Source: an uncultured virus (IMG/VR IMGVR_UViG_3300033175_000390) (taxonomy: Duplodnaviria; Heunggongvirae; Uroviricota; Caudoviricetes). Taken from it: a DNA stretch of 64,000 nt. The notes beneath the pieces were generated by a model, which saw only the letters and a list, made by a program, of their open reading frames with translations, made no database searches and was not told the DNA's origin. Shown here piece after piece: positions 8,042-54,200 of this stretch; the first letter of the stretch is position 1; each line of letters opens with the position of its first letter. Position numbers and translations under genes: made by a program. Location: IMG/VR virus record IMGVR_UViG_3300033175_000390, one strand, 5' to 3'.

Positions 8042-8054
8042 AGCCTTTACCTCC

Positions 8055-11890: not shown

Positions 11891-11926
11891 TCATTTAACC
11901 TCTCTCATCTATTAAGTGTTTTATAT

Positions 11927-12139
11927 TTAGTATTCAGTAATATCTATACCTGCTTTTAATAATCTTTCATATCTCTCGTGGGAGATAAGAACTGCTACAG
12001 GCTTTCCATTTTTCAAAACAAAAGCTGTTTTATCTTCATCTGATAAACCAGTAATTAATTTTGATGATTGTCCTCTAAGAAAATCAGACATGTTATAGAA
12101 TTCCATCGGTTCCTTTTGGACTTTATCTTCCTTATCCAT
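11927..12139 (-). CDS. Phd/YefM-like antitoxin-fold protein (orphan)
   Basis: YNMSDFLRGQSSKLI...FVLKNGKPVAVLISHERYE pattern. Confidence 0.75.
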   Translation of the reverse strand: MDKEDKVQKEPMEFYNMSDFLRGQSSKLITGLSDEDKTAFVLKNGKPVAVLISHERYERLLKAGIDITEY

Positions 12140-12266
12140 ACCTAAATCCACCTTTTCTTTTTATCATAACATTTTACAGCTCTTATTTCAACCTTTATAT
12201 GTACTTGAAAAGTAATTACTTTATAAGTGCATTTCAACCTTGTTTATCTATTCAATCCAATAGCCA

Positions 12267-12313
12267 TCTTGTCAACTCACCACATTTTTGCCAGCAATCT
12301 TATCAACTCACCA
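12267..12313. repeat. 17-bp direct repeat ATCTTRTCAACTCACCA
   Basis: Copies at 12267-12283 and 12297-12313; partial inverted copy near 12340. Confidence 0.7.
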
Positions 12314-12458
12314 ATCCTATATTCAAATTCGTAAATCCGGTGAGTAATCCACCACTCTTGGATATCTTCCCACAAAGCAAAAATCCGTGAATATCCTTCC
12401 GGCTTAGAACCAGACCTCAAATCACGGAAAGCCTTTATTTACTTATCTTTTTACACTC

Positions 12459-12500
12459 TTATTTATCAACCCTTGACATCAATACCACCGTCTCAACGTG
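12459..12500 (-). pseudogene. rlmD: Displaced 3' end of 23S rRNA m5U methyltransferase gene (att junction)
   Basis: Reverse strand reads HVETVVLMSRVDK*, the RlmD/RumA C-terminal HVE motif, without the rest of the gene. Confidence 0.75.
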
Positions 12501-12547
12501 GAACGATAGCATCAGATTGATGTCTGGACTGTGTTTTTCTTTTTGTC

Positions 12548-12635
12548 TGTTCTCGGGAATAGGTCAATAGTGGATTTTTGGGTGCTTTCTGTTCGAGGGA
12601 ACAGTTCAACGGTTTTTATCGGTTTGTGGGAACAA
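12548..12635. repeat. TGTTC-N4-GAAYA palindromic repeats next to the att junction
   Basis: ctgttctcgggaata, ctgttcgagggaacag, gggaaca. Confidence 0.55.
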
Positions 12636-12646
12636 GTCTATGCATG

Positions 12647-12670
12647 ACGGGTTCAAGTCCTGTCATCTCC
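12647..12670 (+). other. tRNA-Ala/tmRNA-like 3' fragment (T-arm + acceptor 3' strand)
   Basis: ACGGG-TTCAAGT-CCTGT-CATCTCC; no 5' half and no CCA. Confidence 0.35.
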
Positions 12671-12808
12671 GGTGGCAAAGGTACTACCTATTGATAAAAT
12701 GCACCGCACCAAAGCAAATCGTTAAAACTTGCACCGCTTTGCACACCCCTTAATTGCCATTCACCGCGTTACTTGCCGCATATATTGGGCGCTATTTGAA
12801 GACAACGG

Positions 12809-13402
12809 CTAATCCTCATGTTTTTCATCGGTTATATCCTTAAAGCCTCCGCCGAAAAACCAACCGTGTGCTTCAATAAAACGGATGAACATATCGCAGA
12901 ATTGATCGCTCGATATGGCGGGATGAATCTCAGCGACTCCGTTAATCTCCACCAAACGACAGTCGGGAATTGCATCGACATACGGCAAAGCATCTGAAAT
13001 TCGGTCAGCCGCCAGTTTGTATTTTTGAATCCGCGCTTCATCTTCCTTGCTTGGATTTTGGATACGAGTCAAATCCATATTATCTATTAAATCCGCAAGT
13101 TTCACACGGCAAGCGGTTTCGTTTGGTAAAATACGGCTGATGAACTCATCATAGGTTTCGCCTTCTCGCTTCGTCAAACAGTCGAGAGCTGTGACAATTT
13201 CATCACTAAATCCCTGCTCTTTTAAATCATCAAATGTAGTAATTGAGTCTTCTATCGTATCATGAAGGGCAGCACAAATCTTCGCAGCTTCGCTCTTGCA
13301 ATTCATCATTACACGGAGCGGATGCATAATATACGGATTTCCTCCTTTATCAACCTGCCCGTCATGTGCTTTCGCGGCAATTGCAATCGCTTTGTTCAAC
13401 AT
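12809..13402 (-). CDS. HD-domain protein, RelA/SpoT hydrolase (small alarmone hydrolase)-like, with extra C-terminal domain
   Basis: AHDGQVDKGGNPYIMHPLRV, ALHDTIED, VKLADLIDN. Confidence 0.85.
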   Translation of the reverse strand: MLNKAIAIAAKAHDGQVDKGGNPYIMHPLRVMMNCKSEAAKICAALHDTIEDSITTFDDLKEQGFSDEIVTALDCLTKREGETYDEFISRILPNETACRVKLADLIDNMDLTRIQNPSKEDEARIQKYKLAADRISDALPYVDAIPDCRLVEINGVAEIHPAISSDQFCDMFIRFIEAHGWFFGGGFKDITDEKHED

Positions 13403-13456
13403 TGAAATTTCCTCCTTTACTTACTGGTTGTTTGGATCAAGGCTATATCCAATTTA

Positions 13457-14110
13457 CTATTTACGACCCCCTCGCCGCTTAACGTCCTTGCGAATTTCCT
13501 CAAAGCAAGCCTCGTCAACGGTTCCCGCCCCCCGGAATGCCGCCACAGCACTTGCCATTACCTTAAAGTTCAGTTCTGTCCCCTCACTGTCGGCGAGATA
13601 ATCAATTGCTCTGTCAGGGGAAATCCCGAAGCGCCCGGCAGTCTGAACTGCATCGATGTTTGCTCCGAGAAAAATAAACTCCCATCCATATTTAGTTTTC
13701 TGCCCTTCAATCTGTGCCTTGACTTTTTCTGCAGAGTATTCACGACTGGAGTTTTCTTCGCCATCTGTGATAATAACAAACATTACTTTTTCAGCACGAT
13801 AGTCATCAGCTGTATGCTTCTGGGCGTTGCCAATCTTGTGGATTGTTCTGCCGATTGCATCGAGCAATGCGGTCGAGCCTCCAACCTGATACTCCTTATC
13901 CGTAATTGCACTGACCGCCTTGATATCAATTCGGTCATGGAGCAGTTCATAGTTGTTATCAAACAACACAGTTGTAATGTGACATTCGCCTTCAATTGCC
14001 TGCTGCTTTTTAAGCATTGAGTTATATCCGCCAATGGTGTCCGCTTCCAGCCCGCTCATCGAGCCGCTTTTATCCAATATAAAAACCAGTTCCGTTAATC
14101 CTTTTTTCAT
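13457..14110 (-). CDS. von Willebrand factor A domain protein
   Basis: MIDAS DKSGSM, TALLDAIG, IITDGEEN. Confidence 0.9.
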   Translation of the reverse strand: MKKGLTELVFILDKSGSMSGLEADTIGGYNSMLKKQQAIEGECHITTVLFDNNYELLHDRIDIKAVSAITDKEYQVGGSTALLDAIGRTIHKIGNAQKHTADDYRAEKVMFVIITDGEENSSREYSAEKVKAQIEGQKTKYGWEFIFLGANIDAVQTAGRFGISPDRAIDYLADSEGTELNFKVMASAVAAFRGAGTVDEACFEEIRKDVKRRGGRK

Positions 14111-14169
14111 TTTCGTAGCCTCCTAAGATTTAATGTAACCTTAGAATACTACTCAGCTGGGGGATGTCG

Positions 14170-14186
14170 GTCGCTTTGGAAGCGAC
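14170..14186. promoter_or_regulatory. Palindromic operator GTCGCTT-TGG-AAGCGAC upstream of vWA gene
   Basis: Perfect 7-3-7 palindrome abutting a CCGACA-N16-TATTCT promoter-like sequence on minus strand. Confidence 0.55.
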
Positions 14187-14189
14187 AAA

Positions 14190-14645
14190 TTACCTTTGAG
14201 ATGCAAAGCCCTCATATCTAGGTTCATATTTATAATGCATTATCCCCTCAATCAATTCCAAAGCAAAAACACCTAAGTTTGCATCAATAATTATATCAAT
14301 CCGTCGGCAGTTCGTTTTAATCCAATCTTTTATATTTGAAGAAGCAATGTTTAAGCTGCTCATCTCGCCATCTGAAAGCAGCGATTTTGCAAGTGTTGAC
14401 GGTGCATTCAAGCCATAATGTTGACTGCAGAACCTTGCATTACTCCTATAATTTGCTTTTCCGATTTTTGGAAATTCATCACCGAGTAAAAACATGTATA
14501 TTGCCATTTTTCCATCAGGTAATCGGGTAGGCGGAATGTGTGGTAAACCCCTATCAACGATTTCATACTTATCCTTCAAAATTGGTTTACCAATTGCCAA
14601 TGTAGCTTTTTGAATTAAAGTATCTATTTCATGAACATAATCCAT
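14190..14645 (-). CDS. GIY-YIG-like nuclease family hypothetical protein
   Basis: AIYMF...KIGKA...ARF...ELIE...PRYE pattern. Confidence 0.5.
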   Translation of the reverse strand: MDYVHEIDTLIQKATLAIGKPILKDKYEIVDRGLPHIPPTRLPDGKMAIYMFLLGDEFPKIGKANYRSNARFCSQHYGLNAPSTLAKSLLSDGEMSSLNIASSNIKDWIKTNCRRIDIIIDANLGVFALELIEGIMHYKYEPRYEGFASQR

Positions 14646-14647
14646 AA

Positions 14648-15682
14648 TCAGCACCCTCCTAACAGCGGCTGATCGTATTCGAACAGTACTTCATTGATCT
14701 TAAAAACATCATATTTACCGTTGGTAATGAAATACTCAACGATAACATCGAACTTTACAGCGTGGGAAAGCGCATAGCCCGCTCGTTCCAAGATGTCGTC
14801 GGTTTCGTCGAGCGATAATTCTAGTGCCACGGCAAGGGCTATAGCCGTGCGCTTACTTGGCATATAGCCTTTATTGCTCCTGATTTTGGAGAATAATTTA
14901 CGATCTAAGTTGGCGCGTTTATAAACCTCGACATCTGTCATTCCCTTAACATCAATCAGGCGCAGGAGCATCTGGGAGAATGGTTCATCAAGGTTGCCAA
15001 TCAAATCATCAAGCGGTGCAGGTGCGCCAACAGACGGAGCGAGTATATCTTCAAAAAGAGGCTCGTTGTATTTACTAACACGCTCATCAGCTTCGGATAA
15101 AGCTTGCCGTTCTACATCAAGTAGTTGCCGCCGCTTTATTTGGTGTGTGTCAATGTAATGTTCATCTATGTAGCTTTCGACTGCACCGAGCAGTTCGCGG
15201 CTGATGGAGAATGCTGCCTTGTCATACACCACAAGGGTCACATGAAGATCATGGTCTGTAAGGAAATCTTGAATTGCCGAAGTAGCCACTTGCAGGGCTT
15301 CATTTTTCGGATAACCATAAATACCACTTGAAATCAGCGGAAAGGCTATGCTTTCACACTTGTTTTCAACGGCTCTCTTCAATGAATTCGTATAGGCGGC
15401 ACGGAGATGTTGGTCGTTTTGCTCCTTGTTCCATTGCTGATAGACGGGACCAGCTGCGTGGATAATGAACTTAGCAGGCAGACCGAATCCCGGCGTGATA
15501 ACCGCTTCGCCCGTCTTAATGGGAGCAAGTTTATCACAGGCGGCTTGAAGTTGTGTCGCTCCCGCCGCTTTGAATATAGCTCCGCTAACCCCACCGCCCA
15601 TTTGCAGGTCGGTGTTGGCGGCGTTGACAATGGCGTCAACCTTCAGCTTCGTTATATCTTGGCGGACAATAGTAAGTGGCAT
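14648..15682 (-). CDS. Macrodomain (ADP-ribose-binding) protein fused to C-terminal HTH
   Basis: DAIVNAAN...GGGVSGAI...IHAAGP...AFPLISSGIYG; C-terminal DVEVYKRANLDRKLFSKIR. Confidence 0.9.
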   Translation of the reverse strand: MPLTIVRQDITKLKVDAIVNAANTDLQMGGGVSGAIFKAAGATQLQAACDKLAPIKTGEAVITPGFGLPAKFIIHAAGPVYQQWNKEQNDQHLRAAYTNSLKRAVENKCESIAFPLISSGIYGYPKNEALQVATSAIQDFLTDHDLHVTLVVYDKAAFSISRELLGAVESYIDEHYIDTHQIKRRQLLDVERQALSEADERVSKYNEPLFEDILAPSVGAPAPLDDLIGNLDEPFSQMLLRLIDVKGMTDVEVYKRANLDRKLFSKIRSNKGYMPSKRTAIALAVALELSLDETDDILERAGYALSHAVKFDVIVEYFITNGKYDVFKINEVLFEYDQPLLGGC

Positions 15683-15795
15683 TAACACACCTCCTCTTTT
15701 GTCATCAGCGATTATTCATTTACTTCTTTAACTTCGCTGAATTATATGATGCCTTTAGTTCTGAAGATGGGCAATACTGTTGGCAAGGTATTCAT

Positions 15796-15909
15796 CTACA
15801 GCAATTGAGCCGGAGAGTTAAACTCCCGCTGAATAGATGGAAGCAAATATTTTTTGCTATGAATGTTGGCTATCGTTTCCTTTATAGTTAATGCAGTTTG
15901 AAAAGCCAT
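15796..15909 (-). pseudogene. DUF262 (GmrSD-like) gene remnant
   Basis: AGGAGG RBS then MAFQTALTIKETIANIHSKKYLLPSIQREF, then premature stop. Confidence 0.65.
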
Positions 15910-15944
15910 TATTATATCCTCCTGTGTTTACATGGTTTACAGTG

Positions 15945-18452
15945 TTACTCTTCTGACACCGCGTCCTCATCAAATATTCTATCGAGTTCAGCATTTGAAG
16001 TTACTCCACGCACCTTGTTTCTTATGTGCGATTTATTCATATCCAAACGATAGAAGATGTCGCGTCCAAACTTATGTACCCTTCGGATAAGTTGAATACG
16101 GCCAAAACGATCTCCGTGCTTATCGGCAAACTTGGCTAATCCTACCGCCTTTGGGTAGTTGTCCTTGCGGCTCGGGTCATGGGGTTCAAGAACATCAAAA
16201 ACATAACCTTGGGCATCGGCACGGACGACAAGCAAGTCGGGGAACATAGGTGTTGCGATGCCATTCACATCATACGGGATCTCTAACGACCACTTTTTAC
16301 GGTCAAGGTTGCGGAGCCATGCTACCGCACCATGTACCAATTCCTCTTTTATCAATCCTCTTTCCCAATCATTGAGGCTAACTTTGAAATCATCACCCTC
16401 GGTCGGGATGAAAAGATGATTTTCATAAGCCACAGCATCATTTCCTACAAAGAAGTCTACGGCTTGTGGCAACCGCCAATCAAGCGGAACGGGAGTAGTT
16501 GAAGAGAAAGCCAGTTTTTCATATACATCTTTGCGTTCCTCTCTTAACCTGCGGAAAGCCGACCGGTTTTCGTCATATAGTTCATTGAACAACTTGTCTG
16601 CAAGCCGTTCCAACCGTTCCATAACATCATTGTCATTTGCTAATACGATAGCTTCGGTCTTTACCTCCTCGTAATCCCGCTTTGCGTGGCGTCCCCAGTA
16701 TTCTCTGTGAAGATCGCCGCCGAAGATTTTACCTGCCCGCTCGAAAAGATTGTTTAAGTCAAACTCGGACAACTCAACAGTCTCGGCATTTTCGGCGGTG
16801 CTTTCGTTGTCACTCTCGCAATAATCAATGGTGAGTGTTTTCAGTGCCAACGCAGTGATAGCCTTAGCAGTTTCATCGAATTTACCGGACTCTTTAAGAG
16901 CATCGACTTCTTTATCGAACTCATCCAGCACCTTTTTAAGAGTGCTTTGCCGCGCCGACGGAGCAATCATATCCTGTGTAAGCGCACGAGCAAGTGCCAT
17001 TAATCGGCGTAGAGCGGGTTGTTTCCTTGCCGAATTAACGCGGTATGTTATCAGCTCCATATCGGTGAATATATCCGTAAACGCAGGGTCACGTTTTAAA
17101 GTGACCAGCTCTTTATGAGAGCCTGTTTCAGACGGAATGATCGCTTCACTATCACGCAGGGCTTCTTCCACTGATCTGACAGTTTCTTCATCAAAGAATG
17201 GCAGATAAAGGGCGACATTATTAAGTTCGGCATCAGCTTCTACCCGTCGGGCAAGCGGAGTGCGAATCATACGTCCGAGCAACTGGGCGATGTGAGTATA
17301 GTCTTGAGCATGACGGAATGACATCATTGTTTCAGCACGTGGGCAGTCCCAACCGGTAGAGAGATTCATCTTAAAGAAGACAACCATAGCATTCTGGTTT
17401 TCTTGGATGCGGGAGGCTTCAATTTTGTGAATTTCATAATCACGTACCTTTATTGTCTCACGCCCGTCGAACGTCTGCACCAACTCTCCAGCTTGGAATT
17501 TACGTCCAATGATTGTCTCAAGTATATCAATACAAGCCCCCAAATCTGTCTGAGTGGCTTCTCGTTCATTGCCGTCCTGCACTTGCACAACGAAAATGGG
17601 ACGTATAGGCGTTTTTATATCCTCATGGTCACAGTAGGCTGCCCAATGCTCACACTTCTTTTTCCAGTTGATTGCAGCTTCTTTGAACATCGTCATATCA
17701 GCATTTATAGCTATTTCAGGGAAGTGGATTATGATTCTGTCCTTCAGCAAGCCGGAATCAATTACATCCTCCGGTGGCACAGTCACATACTGAGTCGTTC
17801 GGTTTATGCCGGTTACGAGCTTTTGGAATCGTTGCGGTGTGGCGGTCATGCCAATGACAAGCGGCATAGGAGGAAGCCCGTCCTCCGGGCTGCCCTTGAT
17901 GAACTTCTGCATAATAGATTGCGCCGTTTGCTCTGCCCGTTGCGTGGCTGTGCCTCTGTGCGCTTCGTCAATAACGACATAAAACGACTTAGGCTGCCGT
18001 TTCGCTGTATTGGCGAGTGTTTCCCATATCGCATACTCCCGACCGTCGCCCCTGCTCGTCAGCAGTTTATCCGTACCGAGCTTCTGTGTATTGAGGAAGT
18101 TAATACTTCCGGGAGCAAAAAACTCCGCATCGAAGTTGGAGTCGATAACGTTGATGTCACGGGCGCGGAACTTCTCTGACTTGCTCTCGATTTTCATTCG
18201 TGTTTGCTCATTGAGTTCAGGCATGTCCGATAGCCATACAAAAACTGAATCAGGCTCCGCTACGACATAAGGGTTTCCGAAGATCATGTTTTCAAACAGG
18301 GCGGTCATTATAATCGTTTTACCTGCACCTGTGGGGGCAGTAAATGAGATAACCTGAGGATCTTTTTCACTCCACATAGTGTGTGCTTTTTGAATTTTTT
18401 CGTGCAAGTCGGCCAGTGCCGTTTCTTGAAATGTAAAAAGCGTGGCTCTCAT
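15945..18452 (-). CDS. res: Type III restriction enzyme Res subunit (SF2 helicase + nuclease)
   Basis: APTGAGKT, DEAH, MTATP, GWDCP, QLLGRMIR; C-terminal PD..EPH. Confidence 0.85.
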   Translation of the reverse strand: MRATLFTFQETALADLHEKIQKAHTMWSEKDPQVISFTAPTGAGKTIIMTALFENMIFGNPYVVAEPDSVFVWLSDMPELNEQTRMKIESKSEKFRARDINVIDSNFDAEFFAPGSINFLNTQKLGTDKLLTSRGDGREYAIWETLANTAKRQPKSFYVVIDEAHRGTATQRAEQTAQSIMQKFIKGSPEDGLPPMPLVIGMTATPQRFQKLVTGINRTTQYVTVPPEDVIDSGLLKDRIIIHFPEIAINADMTMFKEAAINWKKKCEHWAAYCDHEDIKTPIRPIFVVQVQDGNEREATQTDLGACIDILETIIGRKFQAGELVQTFDGRETIKVRDYEIHKIEASRIQENQNAMVVFFKMNLSTGWDCPRAETMMSFRHAQDYTHIAQLLGRMIRTPLARRVEADAELNNVALYLPFFDEETVRSVEEALRDSEAIIPSETGSHKELVTLKRDPAFTDIFTDMELITYRVNSARKQPALRRLMALARALTQDMIAPSARQSTLKKVLDEFDKEVDALKESGKFDETAKAITALALKTLTIDYCESDNESTAENAETVELSEFDLNNLFERAGKIFGGDLHREYWGRHAKRDYEEVKTEAIVLANDNDVMERLERLADKLFNELYDENRSAFRRLREERKDVYEKLAFSSTTPVPLDWRLPQAVDFFVGNDAVAYENHLFIPTEGDDFKVSLNDWERGLIKEELVHGAVAWLRNLDRKKWSLEIPYDVNGIATPMFPDLLVVRADAQGYVFDVLEPHDPSRKDNYPKAVGLAKFADKHGDRFGRIQLIRRVHKFGRDIFYRLDMNKSHIRNKVRGVTSNAELDRIFDEDAVSEE

Positions 18453-20827
18453 ATCTTGTTCCTCCTGCTTCCGATAACAAAGTTATCAATATAGTCGCGG
18501 TAAAGCTGGTATGTCCGCTCTATACCTACGCCGTCCGACATTTCTCTGAACGCTTCTTCGGAATTCGTGACAAAGTAAATCGTTTCAACGCCATCTGCCT
18601 CGTGCAAAGCTGCGGAAAACTCGCCGTATCTATCCTCGTCCAACAAAACAGCGAAGGTATTGTTAGGTAAAATCATCCACGGAGGTAGCTCCTCGTCCAG
18701 CAATACGGGGCGTTCACCAACCGCTCCAGCTTTCAACCACAGCAGCGGTAATATCTCGTGGAACTGCTGACCAAGCGACACACTGTTTTTATCTAAGAAG
18801 CCAAGTTTGAAATATTCCACGTTAGCGGGAAACCCTTCGCTCATTGGGCGCTTCAATGGTTCCTTGACAGAGATCGTGCCGAGCGTGTCGACTACCTTTG
18901 CTTTTATTTTGTTAAACACACGACTTTCTTTTGCCACGATGTAGAAATCCGTAATATGTTCCTGATCCTCAAGAGCAACGAGCCATTCTTCTGATGCATC
19001 AGGGTCAAATAGCACGGATGCTGTGTGTTTCTCCGATATAATGAATCGACTGTTAATTTTTACGAGCGACTGAGATAAAATCGTCTCGCTAACAATACTT
19101 TTTATATCCTTTGGTGGGTCGTCTGCCAGCCTGTTGATTCTTTTCTGGATTGATGAAGCTGCACCAACAATCGAAGCCACTATCTGCTTCTTTGTAGATG
19201 CTGTTAGAGCAGCCGGATTATCTACAAAACCAAGCTGATAGAACGAACGGTTGATTGCCCTCGTAGTAGTTCGGGTTGTGAAATATTCGCCTGTCAGTGT
19301 TGTGCCATCTGCTCTTTTGCCAAGGATGCTGTATTCCGTGCGTGGCCAAGTAACCGAGCGACATATGCCATGACTTTCCCATTCTGGATCACCGGGTTGG
19401 TAGCCCGCCGCTTTTAGTTCTCGGACTTCAGGTTCAGCCACCTCATTATTAGTGACGAGAATACAACGACGATGCCCATCATCTTCAACATTCAAAAGGT
19501 TTACAGCATTAAGCGTTGTTCCACTCCCTGCAAAGAAGTCTACAATAAGTGCATCTTTTTTCCCCAAAACTGCAAATGCTAAGGCTTCCCGAACGGCATA
19601 TAGGGATTTTGGAAACGGGAAACCGCCGCCAATAATCTCCTTTATCATAGCTGTCCCGTGAGCCTCAGCGTTAAAAAGACCATCTGACCAAACAGTTTTT
19701 GGAGGTTCACTTTCTCGATGAAGAATTATTTCGATACGTTCTCCACGCTTTTCAGCGAACATCCTTTCCTGTACAGATTCAACCGTTGCTCGAGCATAAC
19801 GCCACTTCTTTTCTATACCGTTTTTATCTATAGGCCAAACGGAAACAGTACCGTCTTCATTGTTTTCAACTTGTGCTGTCGGATGAATGTCATCGTCCAA
19901 CACATCGCCAAACCCGATGATATTCAGTTTATCATCTAATAATACTGGGTAAAAACAAGTGGCGGCCTCATAACGCCCCGAAGTGCTACCCCAACGCCGC
20001 AGGTTGTAGGTATCTCCTCCAGTGTGAGGTTTTCTAAATATGGTGCTTTCGGCTGAATACGAAAAAATGGCGTATTCATTTGTGACAGAGAAGCTTTTAC
20101 CTTGTGTCCCGCCAGGATTGTGTTGTATCGTCACACAGTTGTGAGTTAACTCCGGGAAAATATCGTGGAGCAAGACCCACAAATGGGCATACTCGTTATC
20201 ATCAATAGTCGTTATCAAAACGCCATCTTTTGCGAGTATTCTCTTTGCAATCAACAGTCGCTTCTGCATCATCGACAGCCACTTACTATGCCTGTATGCA
20301 TCGTTCGAATCCACGTAATCGTTATTATATTTCCAGTCCCTTGCTCCTGTATTATAGGGCGGGTCGATATAAATACAGTCCACTTGTCCCTCATATAGGT
20401 ATTCCAACAGCTGAAGCGCATGATAGTTATCAGCTTCAATAATGGTGTGCCAGAGCGAATCGTCCGGCGCATTCTCTACTTTCGCAATCGGCTCTAAACT
20501 AGGGAAAATTGGCTCTCCGAACTGCGCCACAGAAACGAGTTCTGTAATCGGTATAGTTTCCATGACTCGTTTGGCCTTGTTTACACACATGGCGCTTTCA
20601 CCGTCAACCTTCTTAACAGTGAAAATATCACTCATCTTACCTACCTTTCGGGCAACTTTCGAGTTGCGACGAATGGGTACACCATAGAGCGGTGTGCATT
20701 CAGGGACATGTTCCTCGAATACAAGGCCAAATTTCTTATTCTTTGTCAAACGATCAATCTCGACTGACAGGCGCTCTTTTAACGCAGGGTCTGTGATTTG
20801 CCGTAGTAAATCCTTAATCGCTGCCAT
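18449..20827 (-). CDS. mod: Type III R-M Mod subunit, adenine DNA methyltransferase
   Basis: IYIDPPYNTG, FPFPKS, DFFAGSGTT; overlaps res start. Confidence 0.9.
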   Translation of the reverse strand: MAAIKDLLRQITDPALKERLSVEIDRLTKNKKFGLVFEEHVPECTPLYGVPIRRNSKVARKVGKMSDIFTVKKVDGESAMCVNKAKRVMETIPITELVSVAQFGEPIFPSLEPIAKVENAPDDSLWHTIIEADNYHALQLLEYLYEGQVDCIYIDPPYNTGARDWKYNNDYVDSNDAYRHSKWLSMMQKRLLIAKRILAKDGVLITTIDDNEYAHLWVLLHDIFPELTHNCVTIQHNPGGTQGKSFSVTNEYAIFSYSAESTIFRKPHTGGDTYNLRRWGSTSGRYEAATCFYPVLLDDKLNIIGFGDVLDDDIHPTAQVENNEDGTVSVWPIDKNGIEKKWRYARATVESVQERMFAEKRGERIEIILHRESEPPKTVWSDGLFNAEAHGTAMIKEIIGGGFPFPKSLYAVREALAFAVLGKKDALIVDFFAGSGTTLNAVNLLNVEDDGHRRCILVTNNEVAEPEVRELKAAGYQPGDPEWESHGICRSVTWPRTEYSILGKRADGTTLTGEYFTTRTTTRAINRSFYQLGFVDNPAALTASTKKQIVASIVGAASSIQKRINRLADDPPKDIKSIVSETILSQSLVKINSRFIISEKHTASVLFDPDASEEWLVALEDQEHITDFYIVAKESRVFNKIKAKVVDTLGTISVKEPLKRPMSEGFPANVEYFKLGFLDKNSVSLGQQFHEILPLLWLKAGAVGERPVLLDEELPPWMILPNNTFAVLLDEDRYGEFSAALHEADGVETIYFVTNSEEAFREMSDGVGIERTYQLYRDYIDNFVIGSRRNKI

Positions 20828-20837
20828 ATATTTAACC

Positions 20838-22511
20838 TCACTCCTCTGAGTCTTCAGATGATTCTTCGACTATTCCCACTGTCGTCGGTTCTTCGGTTAT
20901 TCTGCTCCACGATTCTCCGAACAGTTCATTGCCAACCGATAACCGAAGTATGGCATTCTTTTTAAGAATGTCGTATGCAGCAGGTGTGGATGAGTTGGCC
21001 TTGTCGAACGCAATAAATATTTGCCGTCTGCTCTCCTGATACATACCGAGTATCCGTTCAAAATCTGCGTCTTCGATGCGCTTTACGATGCTCGAATCAT
21101 GAATCAGCACGGGGAGCGGTGTCAGCGAGAGCATACTCAGGTCATAGACCACAAGATTCTTAAACGCCGTACCTTCGCTTTTATCGTCGGGTGTTTCAAA
21201 CTCGAACGTCTTGTCCGGCTTTAATGTCAGTACCGGCGCTGATCTATCACCGCCCGTGACGATGGTATTAATTCGTGTCAATTCATCGTTGACTTGTTTT
21301 TCGGCGGCAGCAAGAGCCTCCTCTTGCTTGCGACGAAGATTTGTCAACAGTTTCTCTATTTCCTTGCGCTTTTCTATCTGCTCAATCTCAGACTTTAATT
21401 CCCCGTTTTTCTTTTCCAAGTCGTCGATTTCGCGGGTGATTCGCGCATACTGGTTTAATATTGATTGTGAAATCGTCCGTGCGATTCCCGAATCCTTAAG
21501 CTGCGCTTCAATAGTGGCAATGTCTGCATCCGTGTCCTCTATGAGGGGTTCAAGACGGGCAATTTCCTCCTCGATGTCGGAACGCAAAAAGCCGTTAATC
21601 TTGGCGTGGAAATTTTCAACGTCCGTAAACACATCAATATTGGCATCGGGAAAGAACCGTCTCAATGCCGAGAAGTCTTTTCGCAGAACGCCGTCGCTGT
21701 CGGGCATATTGCTCCTGACTGCTCTCAGTTGTGATTCTAATCGGTATTTGCGGGCATCCAACTTCTCCAGTTCTTTTTTAATTTCCGCAAGCCGTGCCGC
21801 TTTTTCATGGTCAATACCCAATGCCCGCAAGTTGGCTTCTTCATTCTGCTTGCTTAGCTTTTCGCGGCGATTCTCCAAGCTTTCAATCTTTTCCTTGTTT
21901 TCACCAATTTCTGCGGTAATGTCGCTTACCGAGCGTTCGACTTGTTTGCTTGGTTTCAAGCCGTAACTTTCCTCGGCGGCCTTCAGGTTGTAAATGTCCT
22001 CGTATTTGTCGAGCAGTTTCATCAGATACTCGACCGCAGTTGCCATCGACTCACGTTCGCCTTGGAGCGGTTTATGTTCGTTATGGCTCCCGTGTCCGTA
22101 GATTCGGATAAATCGCTCGACGATTTCACCGAACTTGATGTCTCGCAAGGGAATCTTATATTCGTGAAATAACCGATCACGGTAGTCGTTAATGCTCATC
22201 TCCTGAATGACGACGCTATATTTGCCATCACAACGGTTCACCGTGTTCGGGCGGCTCGTCGACCGCCAGAAGTATAACGGCTCATCATCAAACTCAAACT
22301 CAAAATTTATCTGATGGTGACCGATGCGCTCAAATACGTCCTTTGCAGACTTGGTGTAGTCATTGCCACCAAATACGAAATCCAGTATCAGCAGGAACGT
22401 AGACTTACCGATGGCGTTGCTACCGCCCGAACTACCCAGTATGACATTAAGCCCTTTATGGAACTCCGATGGCTGCGTCTTAAATTTGTCACATGTCACC
22501 CTTTTTAACAT
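20838..22511 (-). CDS. DUF2326 / LmuB-like SMC-type ABC ATPase of ABC-three-component system
   Basis: GSNAIGKST Walker A, long coiled coil, SEGT signature, LIHDS Walker B. Confidence 0.8.
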   Translation of the reverse strand: MLKRVTCDKFKTQPSEFHKGLNVILGSSGGSNAIGKSTFLLILDFVFGGNDYTKSAKDVFERIGHHQINFEFEFDDEPLYFWRSTSRPNTVNRCDGKYSVVIQEMSINDYRDRLFHEYKIPLRDIKFGEIVERFIRIYGHGSHNEHKPLQGERESMATAVEYLMKLLDKYEDIYNLKAAEESYGLKPSKQVERSVSDITAEIGENKEKIESLENRREKLSKQNEEANLRALGIDHEKAARLAEIKKELEKLDARKYRLESQLRAVRSNMPDSDGVLRKDFSALRRFFPDANIDVFTDVENFHAKINGFLRSDIEEEIARLEPLIEDTDADIATIEAQLKDSGIARTISQSILNQYARITREIDDLEKKNGELKSEIEQIEKRKEIEKLLTNLRRKQEEALAAAEKQVNDELTRINTIVTGGDRSAPVLTLKPDKTFEFETPDDKSEGTAFKNLVVYDLSMLSLTPLPVLIHDSSIVKRIEDADFERILGMYQESRRQIFIAFDKANSSTPAAYDILKKNAILRLSVGNELFGESWSRITEEPTTVGIVEESSEDSEE

Positions 22512-22728
22512 AACGTAGCACCTCCGTTCCTTCTGGTATTTCAACCTTTCCGAGTTTATACAGGCAGTCGAGCGCATCTAAGAAAATGCTTATCTCTGAT
22601 ACCTTTGTCTTTATCTCAACGAGTAACTCGTGCGGGGTCATATCTCGTTTCTCCAACTTCTCTAAGATAGGCGCGAAGAGTGCGATTACGCTATCCGAGA
22701 AAGTATTAACTTTGCTTGGCATTCTCAT
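22489..22728 (-). CDS. ABC-3C middle component (LmuC-like small protein)
   Basis: MRMPSKV...FLDALDCLYKLGKV; overlaps both neighbours. Confidence 0.75.
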   Translation of the reverse strand: MRMPSKVNTFSDSVIALFAPILEKLEKRDMTPHELLVEIKTKVSEISIFLDALDCLYKLGKVEIPEGTEVLRYVKKGDM

Positions 22729-47717: not shown

Positions 47718-48058
47718 GCATTTTATCTGAATTGAACAGCCTGCTTGACGGACTTCACATCCCGGTTGAAACAGGCGTGTTTTCCACCGCCGCCCCGGAA
47801 GAGTATGTGGTTATCACTCCCCTTGCTGATACCTACGAACTCCATGCGGACAACCGCCCGAAATTCGAGACCCAGGAAGCGCGGCTGTCATTGTTCTCCA
47901 AGGGCAGCTACACCCAGCGCAAGAACCAAATCTGCGCCGCCCTGCTGGAAACGGAGATGACCGTGACCGATCGCCGCTACGTCGGGCATGAGGATGACAC
48001 GGGCTATCACCACTACGCCATCGACGTGGCGAAAGAATACGAAGTACAGGAGGAATAA
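47714..48058 (+). CDS. Tail completion/terminator-like protein
   Basis: Position; EDDTGYHHYAIDV. Confidence 0.7.
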   Translation: MSILSELNSLLDGLHIPVETGVFSTAAPEEYVVITPLADTYELHADNRPKFETQEARLSLFSKGSYTQRKNQICAALLETEMTVTDRRYVGHEDDTGYHHYAIDVAKEYEVQEE

Positions 48059-48062
48059 CACT

Positions 48063-48656
48063 ATGGCTACTATCGGGCTTGACAAGCTCTACTACGCGCC
48101 GATTACCGAGTCGGCGGCCACGGGCGAGGAATCTTACGGCACCCCCGTCCTGTTGGCAAAAGCAATCTCAGCGGAGCTGTCGGTTGAACTGGCTGAAGCG
48201 ACCCTCTACGCCGATGACGGAGCGGCCTATGTCATCAAAGAATTTAAAAACGGAAAGCTGAAACTTGGTGTTGACGACATTGGGCGCACCCAGGCGGAAA
48301 CCCTTACCGGAGCGGCCACCGACGAAAACGGGGTGCTTATCTCATCCAGTGAGGACGGCGGACCCCCTGTCGCCATCGGCTTTCGGGCCAAGAAAGCCAA
48401 TGGCGCTTACCGCTACTTTTGGTTTTACAAAGTTAAGTTCGGGGTGCCGTCTACGAACCTGGCCACCAAAGGTGACTCCATCACTTTCTCTACGCCCACA
48501 ATTGAAGGTACGGTATCGCGCCGCAACAAACTGGACGGCAACGGCAACCACCCCTGGAAGGCTGAGGTCAACTCGGACGATGACGGTGTGGCGGCGGCGA
48601 TCATCACCGGTTGGTACACGGAAGTTTACGAGCCAGCCTTCGCTCTGCAGGGTTAA
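48063..48656 (+). CDS. Major tail protein (phi13 family)
   Basis: IGLDKLYYA, LYADDG, VAIGFRAKK. Confidence 0.9.
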   Translation: MATIGLDKLYYAPITESAATGEESYGTPVLLAKAISAELSVELAEATLYADDGAAYVIKEFKNGKLKLGVDDIGRTQAETLTGAATDENGVLISSSEDGGPPVAIGFRAKKANGAYRYFWFYKVKFGVPSTNLATKGDSITFSTPTIEGTVSRRNKLDGNGNHPWKAEVNSDDDGVAAAIITGWYTEVYEPAFALQG

Positions 48657-48670
48657 AGGAGGTCTGACCT

Positions 48671-49054
48671 ATGGATAACGAGAGAAGCGCGAAAATCAAT
48701 ATCGGGGGCACGGATTTTGAACTGGTTCTTACTACAAGAGCTACCAAGGAAATAGCCCGCCGCTATGGCGGTCTGGAAAATCTAGGCGAGAAACTGATGA
48801 AGGCTGAAAACTTCGAACTTGCCTTAGATGAGATTATCTGGCTGATTACGCTCTTAGCCAACCAGTCCATCCTCATCCATAACCTAAGAAACAAGGACGC
48901 ACCAAAATCTGTTCTTACCGAGGACGAGGTGGAACTTTTGACCTCGCCTTTGGAACTGGCCAGCTACAAGGCGGCCATCACCGAAGCGATGTTTAAAGGC
49001 ACCAAACGCGACATCGAGAGCGAGGGTGACCTAAAAAACACCGGAGCCGAGTAA
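48671..49054 (+). CDS. Tail assembly chaperone gpG
   Basis: Between major tail and tape measure genes; ends with slippery A-AAA-AAC. Confidence 0.8.
   Translation: MDNERSAKINIGGTDFELVLTTRATKEIARRYGGLENLGEKLMKAENFELALDEIIWLITLLANQSILIHNLRNKDAPKSVLTEDEVELLTSPLELASYKAAITEAMFKGTKRDIESEGDLKNTGAE
49033..49039 (+). promoter_or_regulatory. -1 programmed ribosomal frameshift site (A AAA AAC)
   Basis: X XXY YYZ heptamer in correct phase; -1 frame reads HRSRVSDDELFTRLLY up to the intron. Confidence 0.75.
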
Positions 49055-49086
49055 GCGACGATGAGTTGTTTACCCGGCTTCTTTAT

Positions 49087-51557
49087 GTGCGCCCAGATAG
49101 GGCATTGCCTAATGTGGTGTAGGAGCCACTCCGAACGATAACTCGGGAAATAACCCACTTAACCGAAAGGCGAAAGCTGGCACGGGAACAAAGCACGGTG
49201 GGAAAGCGGTAAGTCACCTTAAAACACATTGGTGCGACTGAACTGCAATATTAAGCGGATATAAGGTTTAAATTGGGTTTATTGAATGCGAGTTTCCAGT
49301 TTCTGTTAGTCGTAGGCGGAGGAAATGTGTTTGTAACCTCTGGAGCAGGAAAGGTTGTCATTAATAGAGGGACAATCGGTTATCAAATATCCTGTTCAAC
49401 ACGCAAGAGAACTTGTGATAACGAAACGAAAGCAAAACCGACAATCCGCACATACCTGTAGGCAGTGTTAACTGGGGATACCCTAAACAGGAACGCCACA
49501 ACGCGGCTATAGCCACAGGGCTTGAATACCCTGCATGGGTACGGAGCGTTCGTAGTAGTCCGAGGACGGGAAAGCCGTCCACATGGCGAAGGGACGCAGT
49601 TGTTGTGTACTAAAATCAAAATTGATTAGGGAGGAAAACCTCATATGCAACCAACAATAGAGATTTTAGCAAGAATCAGCGTAAACTCTAACGCAAACAA
49701 GGATGAAGTTTTTACAAGACTTTACCGCTATTTGTTGCGACCAGATATCTACTTTGAAGCATATAAAAACCTGTATGCCAATAACGGAGCAGCGACCCGT
49801 GGCGTGGATAATGATACCGCAGACGGTTTTAGCGAAGCGAAAATTGATAAAATAATAAAATCGCTTAGTGATGAAACCTACACGCCAAAATCAGTGCGAA
49901 GAACTTATATCGATAAGGGAAACGGGAAAAAGCGACCGTTGGGCATTCCGACTTTTACGGACAAACTGGTGCAGGAGGCACTTCGTATGGTACTTGAAGC
50001 TGTGTATGAACCGTCTTTCTTGGATTGGTCGCACGGTTTCAGACCGAACCGAAGCTGTCATACCGCGCTGGCAAGTTTGAAGAAAGAGTTTACAGGGGCG
50101 CGTTGGTTTGTCGAGGGCGACATTAAGGGTTGTTTTGATAATATCGACCACGCCGTTTTAATAAGTATGCTGAACAAGAAAGTGAAGGATGCACGAATAG
50201 TCAAACTGATTTACAAATTTTTAAAAGCAGGTTATATGGAAAATTGGCAGTACCACAACACCTACAGCGGTACTCCGCAAGGCGGAATTATTTCGCCGTT
50301 GCTTGCCAATATCTATCTGCACGAACTGGATAAGTTTGTAATGATGTTAAAGGCAGAGTTTAACAAGCCGAGAGAAACCCATTCCACGTATGAATACGGG
50401 GTTATAAGAAGAAAGATGAAAAAACTCCGTAAGGAAATCGAAAACGCGGACGGTGACAAGCGTGGGCAATTGCTTGATGAATATAAAGCAACTCGCGCAC
50501 AGTTATTACAAACCCCCGCGAAGTCACAAACTGATAAGAAAATCAAGTATATCAGATATGCAGACGATTTTTTGATTGCCGTCAACGGAAGTCGTGAGGA
50601 CTGTGCGGAAATCAAGCGCAGGTTATTCGAATTTATCGGACAGACCTTGAAAATGGAACTCAGCGACGAAAAAACGTTGATTACCCATAGCAATGATTAC
50701 GCGCGGTTTTTGGGCTACGATGTACGTGTGAGGAGAAATGGAAAAATTAAGCGCGGCGGTAAAAATGGTTGTACTAAACGCACGCTTAGCAATAATGTGG
50801 AACTCTTAGTGCCCTTTGAAGATAAAATCAATAAATTCCTGTTCTCAAAGGGTGTTGTTAAACAACGGCTGAACGGTACTGTCTACCCAACGCACAGACC
50901 CGCCCTGGAACGATTGACCGACCTTGAAATTGTGATGACCTACAACGCCGAACTCCGTGGAATATGCAATTATTACAGATTAGCCAGCAACTATAATAGT
51001 CTTGGGTATTTTGCATATCTGATGGAATATAGTTGTTTACGAACGCTTGCAGGAAAACACAAATCAAAGGTTAGCAAAATCAAGGAGAAGTTCAAAGACG
51101 GTCATGGCAAATGGGGTATTCCTTATACGACTAAAAAGGGTGAAAAGCGCTGTTATTTCGCTAAATTAGCCGATTGCAAAGGGGCAAAATTCTGTACGGA
51201 TATATTGCCAAACGCTTTTGTAATCCACATGAGCGCAAGAAATACCTTTGAAAACAGGTTGAAAGCGAAAGTTTGCGAGCTATGTGGGACAACGGATGCA
51301 GAACACTATGAAATTCATCACATTCACAAGGTAAAAGACCTCAAAGGGAAAGAGCCTTGGAAAGTGGCGATGATAGCCAAACGGCGAAAAACTATGGTGG
51401 TTTGCAGAAACTGTCATAACACAATTCATCATTAAGAGTTTAACTGACCAAACAACAATGGGGAGCCGGATACCTTGAGAGGGGTAAGTCCGGTTCCGGG
51501 AGAGGACTGTGCAAACCTACCGTAGAAATGCGGCAAGGCGGCATTTTCCTACTCCAC
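49087..51557 (+). mobile_element. Group IIA intron (Ll.LtrB-like)
   Basis: 5' GTGCGCCCAGATAGGG, domain V GAGCCGGATAC...GTCCGGTTC, 3' CCTACTCCAC; EBS1/EBS2 match the 5' exon. Confidence 0.92.
49645..51435 (+). CDS. ltrA: Group II intron reverse transcriptase/maturase with HNH endonuclease
   Basis: RPLGIP, GTPQGGIISPLLANIYL, RYADD, CELCG...HH...CRNCH. Confidence 0.95.
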   Translation: MQPTIEILARISVNSNANKDEVFTRLYRYLLRPDIYFEAYKNLYANNGAATRGVDNDTADGFSEAKIDKIIKSLSDETYTPKSVRRTYIDKGNGKKRPLGIPTFTDKLVQEALRMVLEAVYEPSFLDWSHGFRPNRSCHTALASLKKEFTGARWFVEGDIKGCFDNIDHAVLISMLNKKVKDARIVKLIYKFLKAGYMENWQYHNTYSGTPQGGIISPLLANIYLHELDKFVMMLKAEFNKPRETHSTYEYGVIRRKMKKLRKEIENADGDKRGQLLDEYKATRAQLLQTPAKSQTDKKIKYIRYADDFLIAVNGSREDCAEIKRRLFEFIGQTLKMELSDEKTLITHSNDYARFLGYDVRVRRNGKIKRGGKNGCTKRTLSNNVELLVPFEDKINKFLFSKGVVKQRLNGTVYPTHRPALERLTDLEIVMTYNAELRGICNYYRLASNYNSLGYFAYLMEYSCLRTLAGKHKSKVSKIKEKFKDGHGKWGIPYTTKKGEKRCYFAKLADCKGAKFCTDILPNAFVIHMSARNTFENRLKAKVCELCGTTDAEHYEIHHIHKVKDLKGKEPWKVAMIAKRRKTMVVCRNCHNTIHH

Positions 51558-51713
51558 TACGGTACGGTGCATCTGAACCGTTCCGAAGAGGAAACCTGGC
51601 TGACCCCGTTGGGTCTGCTCATGGACTTGTGGGAGTGTCATAAGCAGTTTCTGGGCTTGGCCAGGCCCAAACAGGAGATGTTCATAGACGGCATCATTCC
51701 GGAAGGCGTTTAA
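51558..51713 (+). CDS. 3' exon of tail assembly chaperone gpGT (T part)
   Basis: YGTVHLNRSEEETWLTPLGLLMDLWECHKQF continues RLLY in frame after splicing. Confidence 0.75.
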   Translation, partial: YGTVHLNRSEEETWLTPLGLLMDLWECHKQFLGLARPKQEMFIDGIIPEGV

Positions 51714-51794: not shown

Positions 51795-54200
51795 ATGGCG
51801 GACAATTTCGGCCTTAAAATTGGGGTCGAAGGCGAAAAGGAATTTAAAAATGCTCTCAGGGACATCAACCAGTCCTTTAAGGTGCTGGGTAGCGAAATGA
51901 CCCTCGTAACCAGCCAATTTGATAAAAACGATAAATCCATACAATCGGTTACCGCCCGGAACACGGTTCTAAGTAAAGAAATCGACGCTCAGAAAGAGAA
52001 GATTTCCACCCTTAAGGCTGCACTGGACAATGCCTCCTCCTCTTTCGGTGAAAATGACCGCCGTACTCAGAACTGGCAGATTCAACTAAATAAGGCTCAG
52101 GCAGAAATCAACGGTATGGAGCGTGAACTTGAGCAGTCCACAATCGATGCGGATAAGCTCGGTGAAGAATTAGACGATTCCGGTAAAAGTGCTGACGAGG
52201 CCAGTGGCAAGTTCGAAAAGCTGGGCGGCATCCTCAAAGGCATCGGCGTAACTATGGGCGCGGTTGCGGTTGCCGCCGGTGCCGCCGCAATCAAGCTAGG
52301 CCAAGAAGTCGTGCAGCAGTTCGGCGAACTGGAGCAGAACCTGGGCGGTTCAGAAGCCGTGTTCGGCCAGTACGCCGCCTCCATCCAGAAGACCGGCGAA
52401 GAAGCCTACAAGAACCTGGGAGTTTCCCAAAGCGAGTACCTCGCCACCGCCAATAAGATGGGTGCGCTGTTCCAAGGCTCCGGCATTGAACAGCAAAAGT
52501 CGCTGGAACTGACTGAAAAAGCCATGCAGCGAGCGGCGGATATGGCCTCCGTCATGGGTATTGATATGCAGATGGCTTTGGACTCCGTGGCAGGTGCGGC
52601 CAAAGGCAATTTCACCATGATGGATAACCTGGGCGTAGCCATGAATGCCACCAACATCCAAGCCTACGCTTTAGCCAAGGGCCTTGACTTCACCTGGGCA
52701 TCCGCCACCAATGCGGAAAAAGCCGAAGTCGCCATGCAGATGTTCTTTGATACTACCGAGCAGTATGCGGGGAACTTCGCCAAGGAGTCGACCCAGACCA
52801 TCACTGGTTCAATCGGGCTGCTCCAAGCCGCCCTGGGATCGTTTACCGCCGGGCTGGGCAACGCCAACGCCGATATGACAAACCTGACCCAGAATCTGGT
52901 GGAAGCCTTTCAGGCTGTCGTTACTAACATTGTACCGGTTTTGGAGAACATCGTAGCTGCGCTGCCCCCGGCGGTTGGTTCCATATTGCAGGCGGTGGGT
53001 GATCTGCTGCCCACGCTCCTGAGTACAGTTACGGAACTGTTCTCGCAAGTGCTGGAAACCGTCCTGAATCTTTTGCCGCAACTAATCCCGGCGGCTGTTG
53101 GTGCCGTAATGACGATTGTCGGGGCCTTGATTGATAACCTTCCATTGCTCATCGAAGCGGCAGTGCAGCTGGTGTCTGCCCTTGTGGAGGGCATCGGTCA
53201 GGCTTTGCCGGAGTTAATCCCCGCCGCCGTAAACGCTGTCGCAACGATTGTCCAAGGCTTGGCAGACAATCTGCCCATGCTGCTGGGCGCGGCTTTGCAG
53301 CTTATCCTGGGCCTGGCGCAGGGGCTGGTGGACGCGATACCGCAGTTAATTGCCGCATTGCCCGCCATAATTAATGCTCTGGTTGATTTCATCATCGGGG
53401 CTGTGCCGCAGATTATCCAGGCGGGCATCCAGCTTTTAGCGGCCTTGGTCAAAGGACTGCCGGAAATCATCATAGCTGTTGTGGCAGCCATACCCCAGAT
53501 TGTCGAAGCGCTGGTTACCGCCATCATAGACCCGGAAAGCACCGGGATGATAATTGAGGCTGGTTTTGTCCTCTTTGTTTCTTTGATTCAGAACCTGCCT
53601 GCCATCATAGCTGCCATAGTTAAAGCCGTACCCCCGATCATTACCGCCATAGTGAACGACTTTCGCCAGGGCATCGACCGTATTGTGGAGGTAGGCAAGT
53701 TTATCGTCGAGGGTATCTGGGAAGGGGTCAGCCAGATGGGTGGCTGGCTGGCGGACAAAGTGAGAAACTTTGCTAAATCCATCATTGACTCCATAACCAG
53801 CGCTTTAGGGATTAGCTCGCCATCAGTCGTCATGCGGGACTTGGTCGGCAAAAACCTGGTATTAGGTTTGGCGGAAGGAATAAGCCAAAACAGCAAAGAC
53901 GCGGTCATAGCAGCTCATCGTCTGGTCAGCGATACTCTGGCTGCCATGGAGGAACTGAGCAAGGGGACGGATTTTACGATTGCAGTGGGTGGTCTTAAGT
54001 CTGGATTGGAAGGTATGATGCCGCCAGCAGCAGCTCCTTCTGAACTGGCTTCATCAAACTTCGGCAGATATTCCCCAGACACACCAGGCAGCGCTGTGAT
54101 CAACAACACTCTAAACTTTTACACTCCCACCGCCAGCCCAGCGGATATCGCTAAAGCCAGCCGCCGGGCAGCGGAGCAGATGCTGCGGTATGCCACTTAG
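51795..54200 (+). CDS. Tape measure protein
   Basis: GLKIGVEGEKEFK start, Ala/Leu/Ile-rich repeats, GISSPS. Confidence 0.9.
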   Translation: MADNFGLKIGVEGEKEFKNALRDINQSFKVLGSEMTLVTSQFDKNDKSIQSVTARNTVLSKEIDAQKEKISTLKAALDNASSSFGENDRRTQNWQIQLNKAQAEINGMERELEQSTIDADKLGEELDDSGKSADEASGKFEKLGGILKGIGVTMGAVAVAAGAAAIKLGQEVVQQFGELEQNLGGSEAVFGQYAASIQKTGEEAYKNLGVSQSEYLATANKMGALFQGSGIEQQKSLELTEKAMQRAADMASVMGIDMQMALDSVAGAAKGNFTMMDNLGVAMNATNIQAYALAKGLDFTWASATNAEKAEVAMQMFFDTTEQYAGNFAKESTQTITGSIGLLQAALGSFTAGLGNANADMTNLTQNLVEAFQAVVTNIVPVLENIVAALPPAVGSILQAVGDLLPTLLSTVTELFSQVLETVLNLLPQLIPAAVGAVMTIVGALIDNLPLLIEAAVQLVSALVEGIGQALPELIPAAVNAVATIVQGLADNLPMLLGAALQLILGLAQGLVDAIPQLIAALPAIINALVDFIIGAVPQIIQAGIQLLAALVKGLPEIIIAVVAAIPQIVEALVTAIIDPESTGMIIEAGFVLFVSLIQNLPAIIAAIVKAVPPIITAIVNDFRQGIDRIVEVGKFIVEGIWEGVSQMGGWLADKVRNFAKSIIDSITSALGISSPSVVMRDLVGKNLVLGLAEGISQNSKDAVIAAHRLVSDTLAAMEELSKGTDFTIAVGGLKSGLEGMMPPAAAPSELASSNFGRYSPDTPGSAVINNTLNFYTPTASPADIAKASRRAAEQMLRYAT

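Follow-up and report, generated by a model that had tools for sequence, protein, structure and literature searches.

The closest described relatives of the gene arrangement considered here are the gpG/gpGT pair of phage lambda and the gpG/gpT pair of TP901-1, encoded between the major tail and tape measure genes, where G carries an X XXY YYZ heptamer close to its end and the T part lies in the -1 frame and has no start codon of its own. In lambda, G and GT are made at about 30:1 and this ratio matters (Atkins 2016, PMC5009743). The T part is required in both phages (PMC5009743, PMC4493119); TP901-1 without gpT makes capsids lacking tails, and a permanent G-T fusion leads to non-infectious particles (PMC4493119), according to the available portions of these papers.

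For the intron found at this locus, the nearest known system is Ll.LtrB, with its protein LtrA (PDB 5g2x), which interrupts a Lactococcus relaxase gene and whose splicing is needed for the transfer function of the mobile element (PMC6003770 and PMC7293003, in their accessible parts). Self-splicing introns also occur in essential structural genes of phages, namely in the capsid and minor tail genes of Cluster J mycobacteriophages (PMC3706429) and, in-frame, in the tape measure, tail tube and terminase genes of Bacillus cereus-group prophages (PMC2504315); in the accessible text of both papers these introns belong, certainly or probably, to group I, and a frameshifted chaperone is not among their locations. 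A 2025 survey of phage group II introns (Merk et al.) described introns in phage coding regions, confirmed, as here, by intron-less homologues. Its Table S2 contains the domain V/VI (DV/DVI) match of the present intron, in IMGVR_UViG_3300033172_000274, as a raw Rfam row without host gene. In its supplement the word 'tail' occurs once only (an ORF-less IIB intron in the c-st minor tail gene) and 'chaperone', 'portal' and 'capsid' are absent, and the accessible part of its text holds no discussion of frameshifts or insertion phase. In the main text of the Heliusvirales paper (PMC11283538), the terms intron, reverse transcriptase, frameshift and chaperone are all absent. The G/GT frameshift (for long), phage group II introns (since 2025) and group I introns in virion genes are known separately; a non-exhaustive literature search uncovered neither an intron in a chaperone frame that depends on frameshifting, nor an intron-binding site (IBS) inside a frameshift hairpin, nor the virion-gene sites described below.

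The window, a stretch of 64,000 nt, corresponds to GenBank PV036457.1 (phage IMGVR 15682261, Ca. Heliusvirales, 64,355 bp) with identical coordinates, and its positions 32-52317 also constitute contig C56 of genome G000. The same gpG-intron-T arrangement is present in PV036457.1, in IMG/VR contig L002 and in the G000 contig, three assemblies that are possibly not independent. All the features discussed are on the + strand. The major tail protein gene (48063-48656, start as annotated; phrog_88, E 8e-52, for the ORF 47988-48656) is followed by gpG (48671-49054, 127 aa, phrog_2115), the intron, the second T exon and the tape measure gene (51795-54200, phrog_58); since the latter has a ribosome-binding site of its own, it should be independent of splicing. 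GenBank labels gpG 'tail protein' and the intron-encoded protein (IEP) 'reverse transcriptase', adds four short reverse-strand ORFs, and carries no intron or frameshift annotation. A scan for promoters and terminators gave signals no better than shuffled sequence.

The assignment of gpG as a tail assembly chaperone rests on its position between the major tail and tape measure genes and on several searches. An atlas search gave a first match at 0.90, with PF11836 (Phage_TAC_11) on 29% of members; the predicted structure had a pLDDT of 85.5, and two of the six BFVD matches to this model at E<=0.001 are named tail assembly chaperone (E 6e-5 and 3e-4). Solved structures, searched by sequence and by fold, gave no clear match (best Z 5.1), and lambda gpG matched this gpG neither by sequence nor by solved structure.

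As in lambda and TP901-1, two overlapping frames lie between the major tail and tape measure genes, G ending in a conserved slippery sequence and T being open in the -1 frame. Unlike lambda, where it is GGGAAAG, the heptamer is A AAA AAC (49033-49039). It was sought in the best 80 of 575 and the best 80 of 263 candidate gpG loci from two collections, which left 122 distinct loci once three copies of this phage had been removed and duplicates merged. Among these best-matching intron-less loci our script scored A AAA AAC 112 times and A AAA AAT once (A AAA AAY, 113/122), another heptamer once, and missed eight; all eight show the heptamer in their sequence, with a T part that is disrupted, truncated or unmatched by the search pattern. 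The codon preceding the heptamer lysine specifies eight different residues and ends in A in 114/114 cases (background 994/6335, 16%), and the lysine codon itself is AAA in 113/113 homologues (background 442/1036, 43%), these loci being kin, so that the counts overstate independence. Such conservation of an A-ending codon and of AAA argues that the heptamer is not due to chance. Its first six bases are invariant in 87/87 aligned rows, which were chosen for carrying the heptamer. We infer that gpG to gpGT frameshifting takes place here; transcriptional slippage is a less likely source of the -1 product as the run of A comprises just six bases and is codon-phased.

A stem-loop that was not part of the earlier, sequence-only reading of this DNA starts three bases past the heptamer (49043-49081) and overlaps IBS2 and IBS1; the gpG stop codon (49052-49054) sits in its 5' arm. 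Its predicted energy is -24.1 kcal/mol (z -7.3), and the corresponding stretch has z<-2 in 99/99 distinct homologues, versus 3/99 and 5/99 for the upstream and downstream controls. In an alignment of 87 rows, comprising the window and the 86 homologues that share the most frequent spacing, 85.9% of the cells pair and 9 of the 17 pairs are changed on both sides. The covariation score was 0.273 versus 0.164 for shuffled alignments, a contrast inflated by relatedness, and at most 0.097 for slid ones. Such a strong covarying 3' hairpin distinguishes this locus from lambda and TP901-1 in the available descriptions of these. From its position and from the general frameshift model, as given in the accessible parts of PMC5009743 and PMC10885494, the hairpin probably stimulates -1 frameshifting. 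The spacer separating it from the heptamer looks short, so that the bottom pairs may open.

Group IIA introns start with 5' GUGYG, end with 3' YAY, and have an AGC triad in DV and a bulged A in DVI seven bases from the end. The GWYRG motif and the DV triad are also given as group II features in PMC12350094. The 2471-nt intron (49087-51557, phase 0) starts with GTGCG and ends with CAC, and its DV and DVI (51461-51557; fold z -5.5) contain the AGC triad (51464-51466) and the bulged branch A (51551); they match Rfam RF00029 at 54.6 bits (cut-off 40). No Rfam D1-D4 model matched the intron at E<=1; folding covered the exon-binding site (EBS) loops and DV/DVI. EBS2 (AGTCG, 49308-49312, in a predicted loop and aligned with relatives) faces IBS2 (CGGCT, 49075-49079), EBS1 (ATAGAG) faces IBS1 (CTTTAT, 49081-49086), and the delta A that shares an 11-nt loop with EBS1 (49363-49369 for both) faces the first base of exon 2; 12/12 pairs form, with one wobble in each of the two EBS-IBS pairings. 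The IEP (49645-51435, 596 aa) has a reverse transcriptase (RT) with YADD, a maturase X domain and an HNH endonuclease (En), with PF00078, PF01348 and PF21368 above cut-off, and scores 299.1 bits against TIGR04416 (NCBIfam), 0.9 bit below the cut-off of 300. It matches LtrA (5g2x_C) over its full length (E 1e-250), with 836 bits in pairwise comparison versus at most 151 for other solved RTs. To judge from these sequence features, the intron is an intact LtrB-like group IIA intron with correct exon pairing, which shares with Ll.LtrB the RT-X-En layout and the EBS2/EBS1/delta geometry; unlike Ll.LtrB, its host is a phage tail chaperone gene in which ribosomes get to the interrupted part through frameshifting alone, and its IBS2 lies in an exon hairpin.

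The sequence-only reading had proposed that gpGT requires both a -1 frameshift and group II splicing; all its coordinates and peptides were confirmed on re-reading the sequence. From the heptamer the -1 frame reads HRSRVSDDELFTRLLY and reaches 49086 after the 16 T codons of exon 1 (49039-49086), meeting the intron at a codon boundary (49086/49087). Joining 49086 to 51558 restores the frame through exon 2 (51558-51713, 51 codons plus stop) and gives a gpGT of 123 + 67 = 190 aa, the size that had been predicted, whereas unspliced RNA gives a 150-aa product ending, as had also been read, in VRPDRALPNVV. Exon 2 corresponds to positions 13-63 of the 72 of phrog_10988 (E 8e-22); this family has 12 further N-terminal residues, which exon 1 supplies, so that the join is not due to chance. 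When the boundary was shifted from -4 to +4 (n=9), a homologue-like LLY|YG was obtained at -2, -1 and 0, and a GTGCG start at 0 only. In intron-less homologues T runs on unbroken as F.RL..Y[YF]G, contiguous across RLLY|YG and mostly without a start codon of its own. A T part split by an intron is a further difference from lambda and TP901-1 as described in the sources at hand. The double requirement is supported by the conserved heptamer, the contiguous homologue frame, the exon pairing and the restored frame. As foreseen for ordinary gene callers, annotation missed the split gene: GenBank has only a 61-aa ORF (51528-51713) that starts within domain VI of the intron.

Relatives of this intron were collected as 159 loci with an IEP 55-100% identical (the best 79 viral and best 80 metagenomic), the viral database favouring phage sites. 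When compared with the proteins of this phage by blastx, 77 were mapped, 51 unmapped and 31 incomplete. The 77 fall into 16 phage sites, all in phase 0 and 15 of them in virion genes: portal (2), ClpP-type protease (5), major capsid, connector, major tail (2), gpG, gpT (2), tape measure and antirepressor. An HK97-gp10 site and a second capsid site recognised by eye bring the virion-gene sites to about 17. Most of the unmapped loci we take, from their motifs, to be conjugative-element genes (relaxase, VirD4, NlpC); among those testable for phase, 33/37 were in phase 0 and 4 were ties. When each of 29 site classes was represented by one best-pairing member, G or U made up 68/87 of the EBS bases facing third codon positions versus 121/232 of those elsewhere (Fisher p 2e-5, the kin being non-independent), and 30/38 wobble pairs were opposite third positions. 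Phase 0 also places the unpaired -7 base on a third codon position. In a quick tree of 52 IEPs with a weak backbone, phage and conjugative-element introns were interleaved, which makes repeated exchange between them likelier than one phage-only clade.

Several alleles point to recent movement of the intron at the gpT site. In L164 it shows 1 difference in 2434 nt next to an exon 1 only 71% identical to that of the window; contigs of run X1 (probably DNA) contain the intron with 2 and 3 differences, flanked on either side by other exons; and in RNA run X6 the 5' part of a near-identical intron is joined to another gpG. At least four alleles (this one and at least three others) carry the intron at this position, and its near-unchanged sequence in the latter indicates spreading. 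An assembly artefact was rejected, the same intron being found at the same site in other alleles. The EBS pairs with at most one mismatch with 99/107 intron-less sites (64/107 for a strict complement of the window allele); carriers are rare, with 1/160 best-matching gpG loci (best 80 of 575 and of 263), L002, which is the same phage. The exact intron start gave 0 matches in metagenome_contigs, the IEP was not found with this query at 1e-100 in two same-genus genomes (84-88% complete), and no second copy of the intron or of gpG was found in G000. G000 contains four other DV/DVI matches. One contig of RNA run X9 is intron-free with a different exon 2 and may come either from another allele after splicing or from a phage that lacks the intron.

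The reading that we consider quite probable is that a selfish, currently mobile group IIA intron homed into a conserved codon boundary of T in an ordinary lambda-type G/GT gene of a Ca. Heliusvirales prophage, so that gpGT needs both slip and splice. The late transcript would be spliced with the assistance of the intron's own maturase. Most translation would end at the gpG stop and yield the 127-aa gpG, and a few ribosomes would slip by -1 on A AAA AAC, aided by the hairpin; those on spliced mRNA would make the 190-aa gpGT and those on unspliced RNA the 150-aa dead-end product. Since gpGT is needed in small amounts only, incomplete splicing may be tolerated. The dependence of gpGT on splicing follows from the gene layout and, given what is known of the G:GT ratio and of the need for T in lambda and TP901-1, partial splicing would bear on phage output. 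We regard this dependence of tail assembly on splicing as a by-product of parasitism, with no evolved switch.

This homing scheme has to accommodate the position of the docking site. IBS2 and the first base of IBS1 make up the hairpin's 3' arm (predicted pairing probability 0.94-1.0), so that IBS2 must be freed, most plausibly by ribosomes reaching the gpG stop: a terminating ribosome would mask the 5' arm and lower the opening cost. In folding predictions this cost is 13.6 kcal/mol in the window and falls to 0.1-3.9 kcal/mol, depending on the footprint, when the 5' arm is masked; with columns 1-32 masked, a small alternative hairpin keeps IBS2 about 80% paired.

The overlap could also speak for splicing having been recruited as a regulator, the phage or its host adjusting the G:GT ratio and phage output to particular conditions by means of splicing or of a contest for IBS2 in which EBS2 and the 5' arm are rivals. 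The consensus 5' arm of the homologues includes the same five bases as EBS2, and Ll.LtrB lowers the expression of its host gene through EBS-IBS pairing in a cold-sensitive manner, as reported in the accessible parts of PMC6003770 and PMC7293003. A second, different intron points the same way. Found in IMG/VR contigs L187 and L188 (10 differences in 2650 nt; L250 is apparently the same contig as L187), with an intact IEP that is 69% identical and has YADD, it lies six codons upstream and splits the hairpin; the joined exons fold at -24.1 kcal/mol whereas the unspliced RNA adopts another fold at -14.4 kcal/mol, so that in these sister phages the hairpin is predicted to form only after splicing. 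Against such a regulator, the intron of the window is rare and recent. Moreover, a stretch doubly selected for coding and for pairing makes a conserved homing target, where an overlap of IBS and hairpin is expected anyway. Weakening of the hairpin in intron-bearing alleles was considered and rejected: their IBS opening costs are 13.6 and 13.9 kcal/mol versus a median of 13.5 in 84 intron-less ones, a strength that is the same with or without the intron and shows no sign of adaptation. We therefore hold a regulated gate to be unlikely. The suggestion, made from sequence, that the maturase acts as an evolved gate on phage output found no support, given the single carrier, of this same phage, among the 160 loci; near-identity of the intron in divergent alleles and the relatives in many virion and conjugation genes indicate selfish homing instead.

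A buried IBS could also hinder splicing, to the point that the phage would be crippled and make few or no tails, the intron persisting by homing among resident prophages. The opening cost for this site class (median 13.75 kcal/mol) is the highest of all those examined (medians of 0.2-9.1 for the others), the EBS2:IBS2 duplex is predicted at just -3.9 kcal/mol, and the exon-exon joint 49086-51558 was not seen in the contigs of four public runs, contigs informing on presence only. Retrohoming, however, requires excised intron RNA; the spread to at least four alleles at this site therefore implies that the intron splices from this context, and exon 2, the IEP and the downstream tail genes have all kept open reading frames, which makes a crippled phage improbable. 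That T is translated as a separate protein, beginning at a start codon of its own or at the ATG annotated at 51528, so that either the frameshift or splicing could be dispensed with, hardly deserves belief despite the GenBank gene call and a GTG or ATG in the -1 frame of 9/114 homologues, because no ATG, GTG or TTG lies between slip site and T motif in the other 105/114 scored, ATG 51528 is within domain VI without a Shine-Dalgarno-like sequence upstream, and in one relative from the databases (P0003) G and T are fused in frame into a protein of 192 aa, whether naturally or through an assembly slip.

Beyond the homing of a selfish intron into a G/GT gene, we put forward, tentatively and as something rather doubtful, that group II introns directly affect a signal for ribosomal frameshifting, the state of the intron RNA setting tail stoichiometry. 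EBS2 and the 5' arm of the hairpin would compete for the same bases, and splicing would need translation of gpG to open the hairpin; the excised intron, by re-binding the spliced mRNA, would weaken the stimulator and shift the G:GT ratio; and at the sister site splicing would build the stimulator. On a wider scale, LtrB-like introns would have colonised the approximately 17 sites of the virion module by way of codon boundaries and of G or U opposite third positions.

To conclude, the locus would be a clean natural case, missed by annotation pipelines, in which a single essential phage gene combines two decoding events at the RNA level. It offers a small, testable system for asking how a group II intron can dock when the exon is already engaged in a fold with a different role, and whether splicing or re-binding of the intron alters frameshift rates. 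The codon-boundary and wobble pattern would amount to a simple rule by which homing introns cover many synonymous alleles, and bears on targetron design. For the phages themselves, the survey of related introns suggests that Ca. Heliusvirales-like phages repeatedly carry introns in their virion genes and that these go unannotated.

A long cargo block occupies the minus strand of the window at 2610-22577. As judged by eye from the translations, it contains restriction-modification-like genes of types I and III, together with genes for macro-domain, vWA and HD-like proteins. The header of the matching GenBank entry, PV036457.1, gives 'human feces' as the source, whereas the sequencing runs with most of the stretch come from biogas, sludge and fermentation samples. 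In the host bin, three other contigs (C37, C96 and C139 of G000) carry four further group II DV/DVI matches above the Rfam cut-off.

Among the relatives, related introns are found in the phage genes for portal, protease, capsid, connector, HK97-gp10, major tail, gpG and tape measure proteins (loci L165-L241, L247, L249, L263, L267-L270 and L273); wherever a phase was assigned, they lie at codon boundaries. In L139, the 3' end of a related intron-encoded protein (L139:3-275) is located about 3.7 kb upstream of gpG, and the head module of that phage therefore probably holds a further intron. In L214, L215, L289 and L303, the exon-binding sequences match conjugative-element sites, yet the introns sit elsewhere, one of them inside a phage antirepressor gene; these are probable retrotransposition events.

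Other insertions or frameshifts break the gpT or gpG frame in L147, L160, L071 and L132, which are possibly decayed prophages or assembly errors. The database representative P0003 is a G-T fusion in one frame (192 aa), consistent with loss of one A from the slippery run, and is either natural or an assembly error.

Another group II intron interrupts gpT in L187 (192-2677), L188 and L250 (the last apparently the same contig as L187), six codons upstream of the site used in the window. It splits the frameshift hairpin (49043-49081 in the window), which in these loci is predicted to form only once this second intron has been spliced out.
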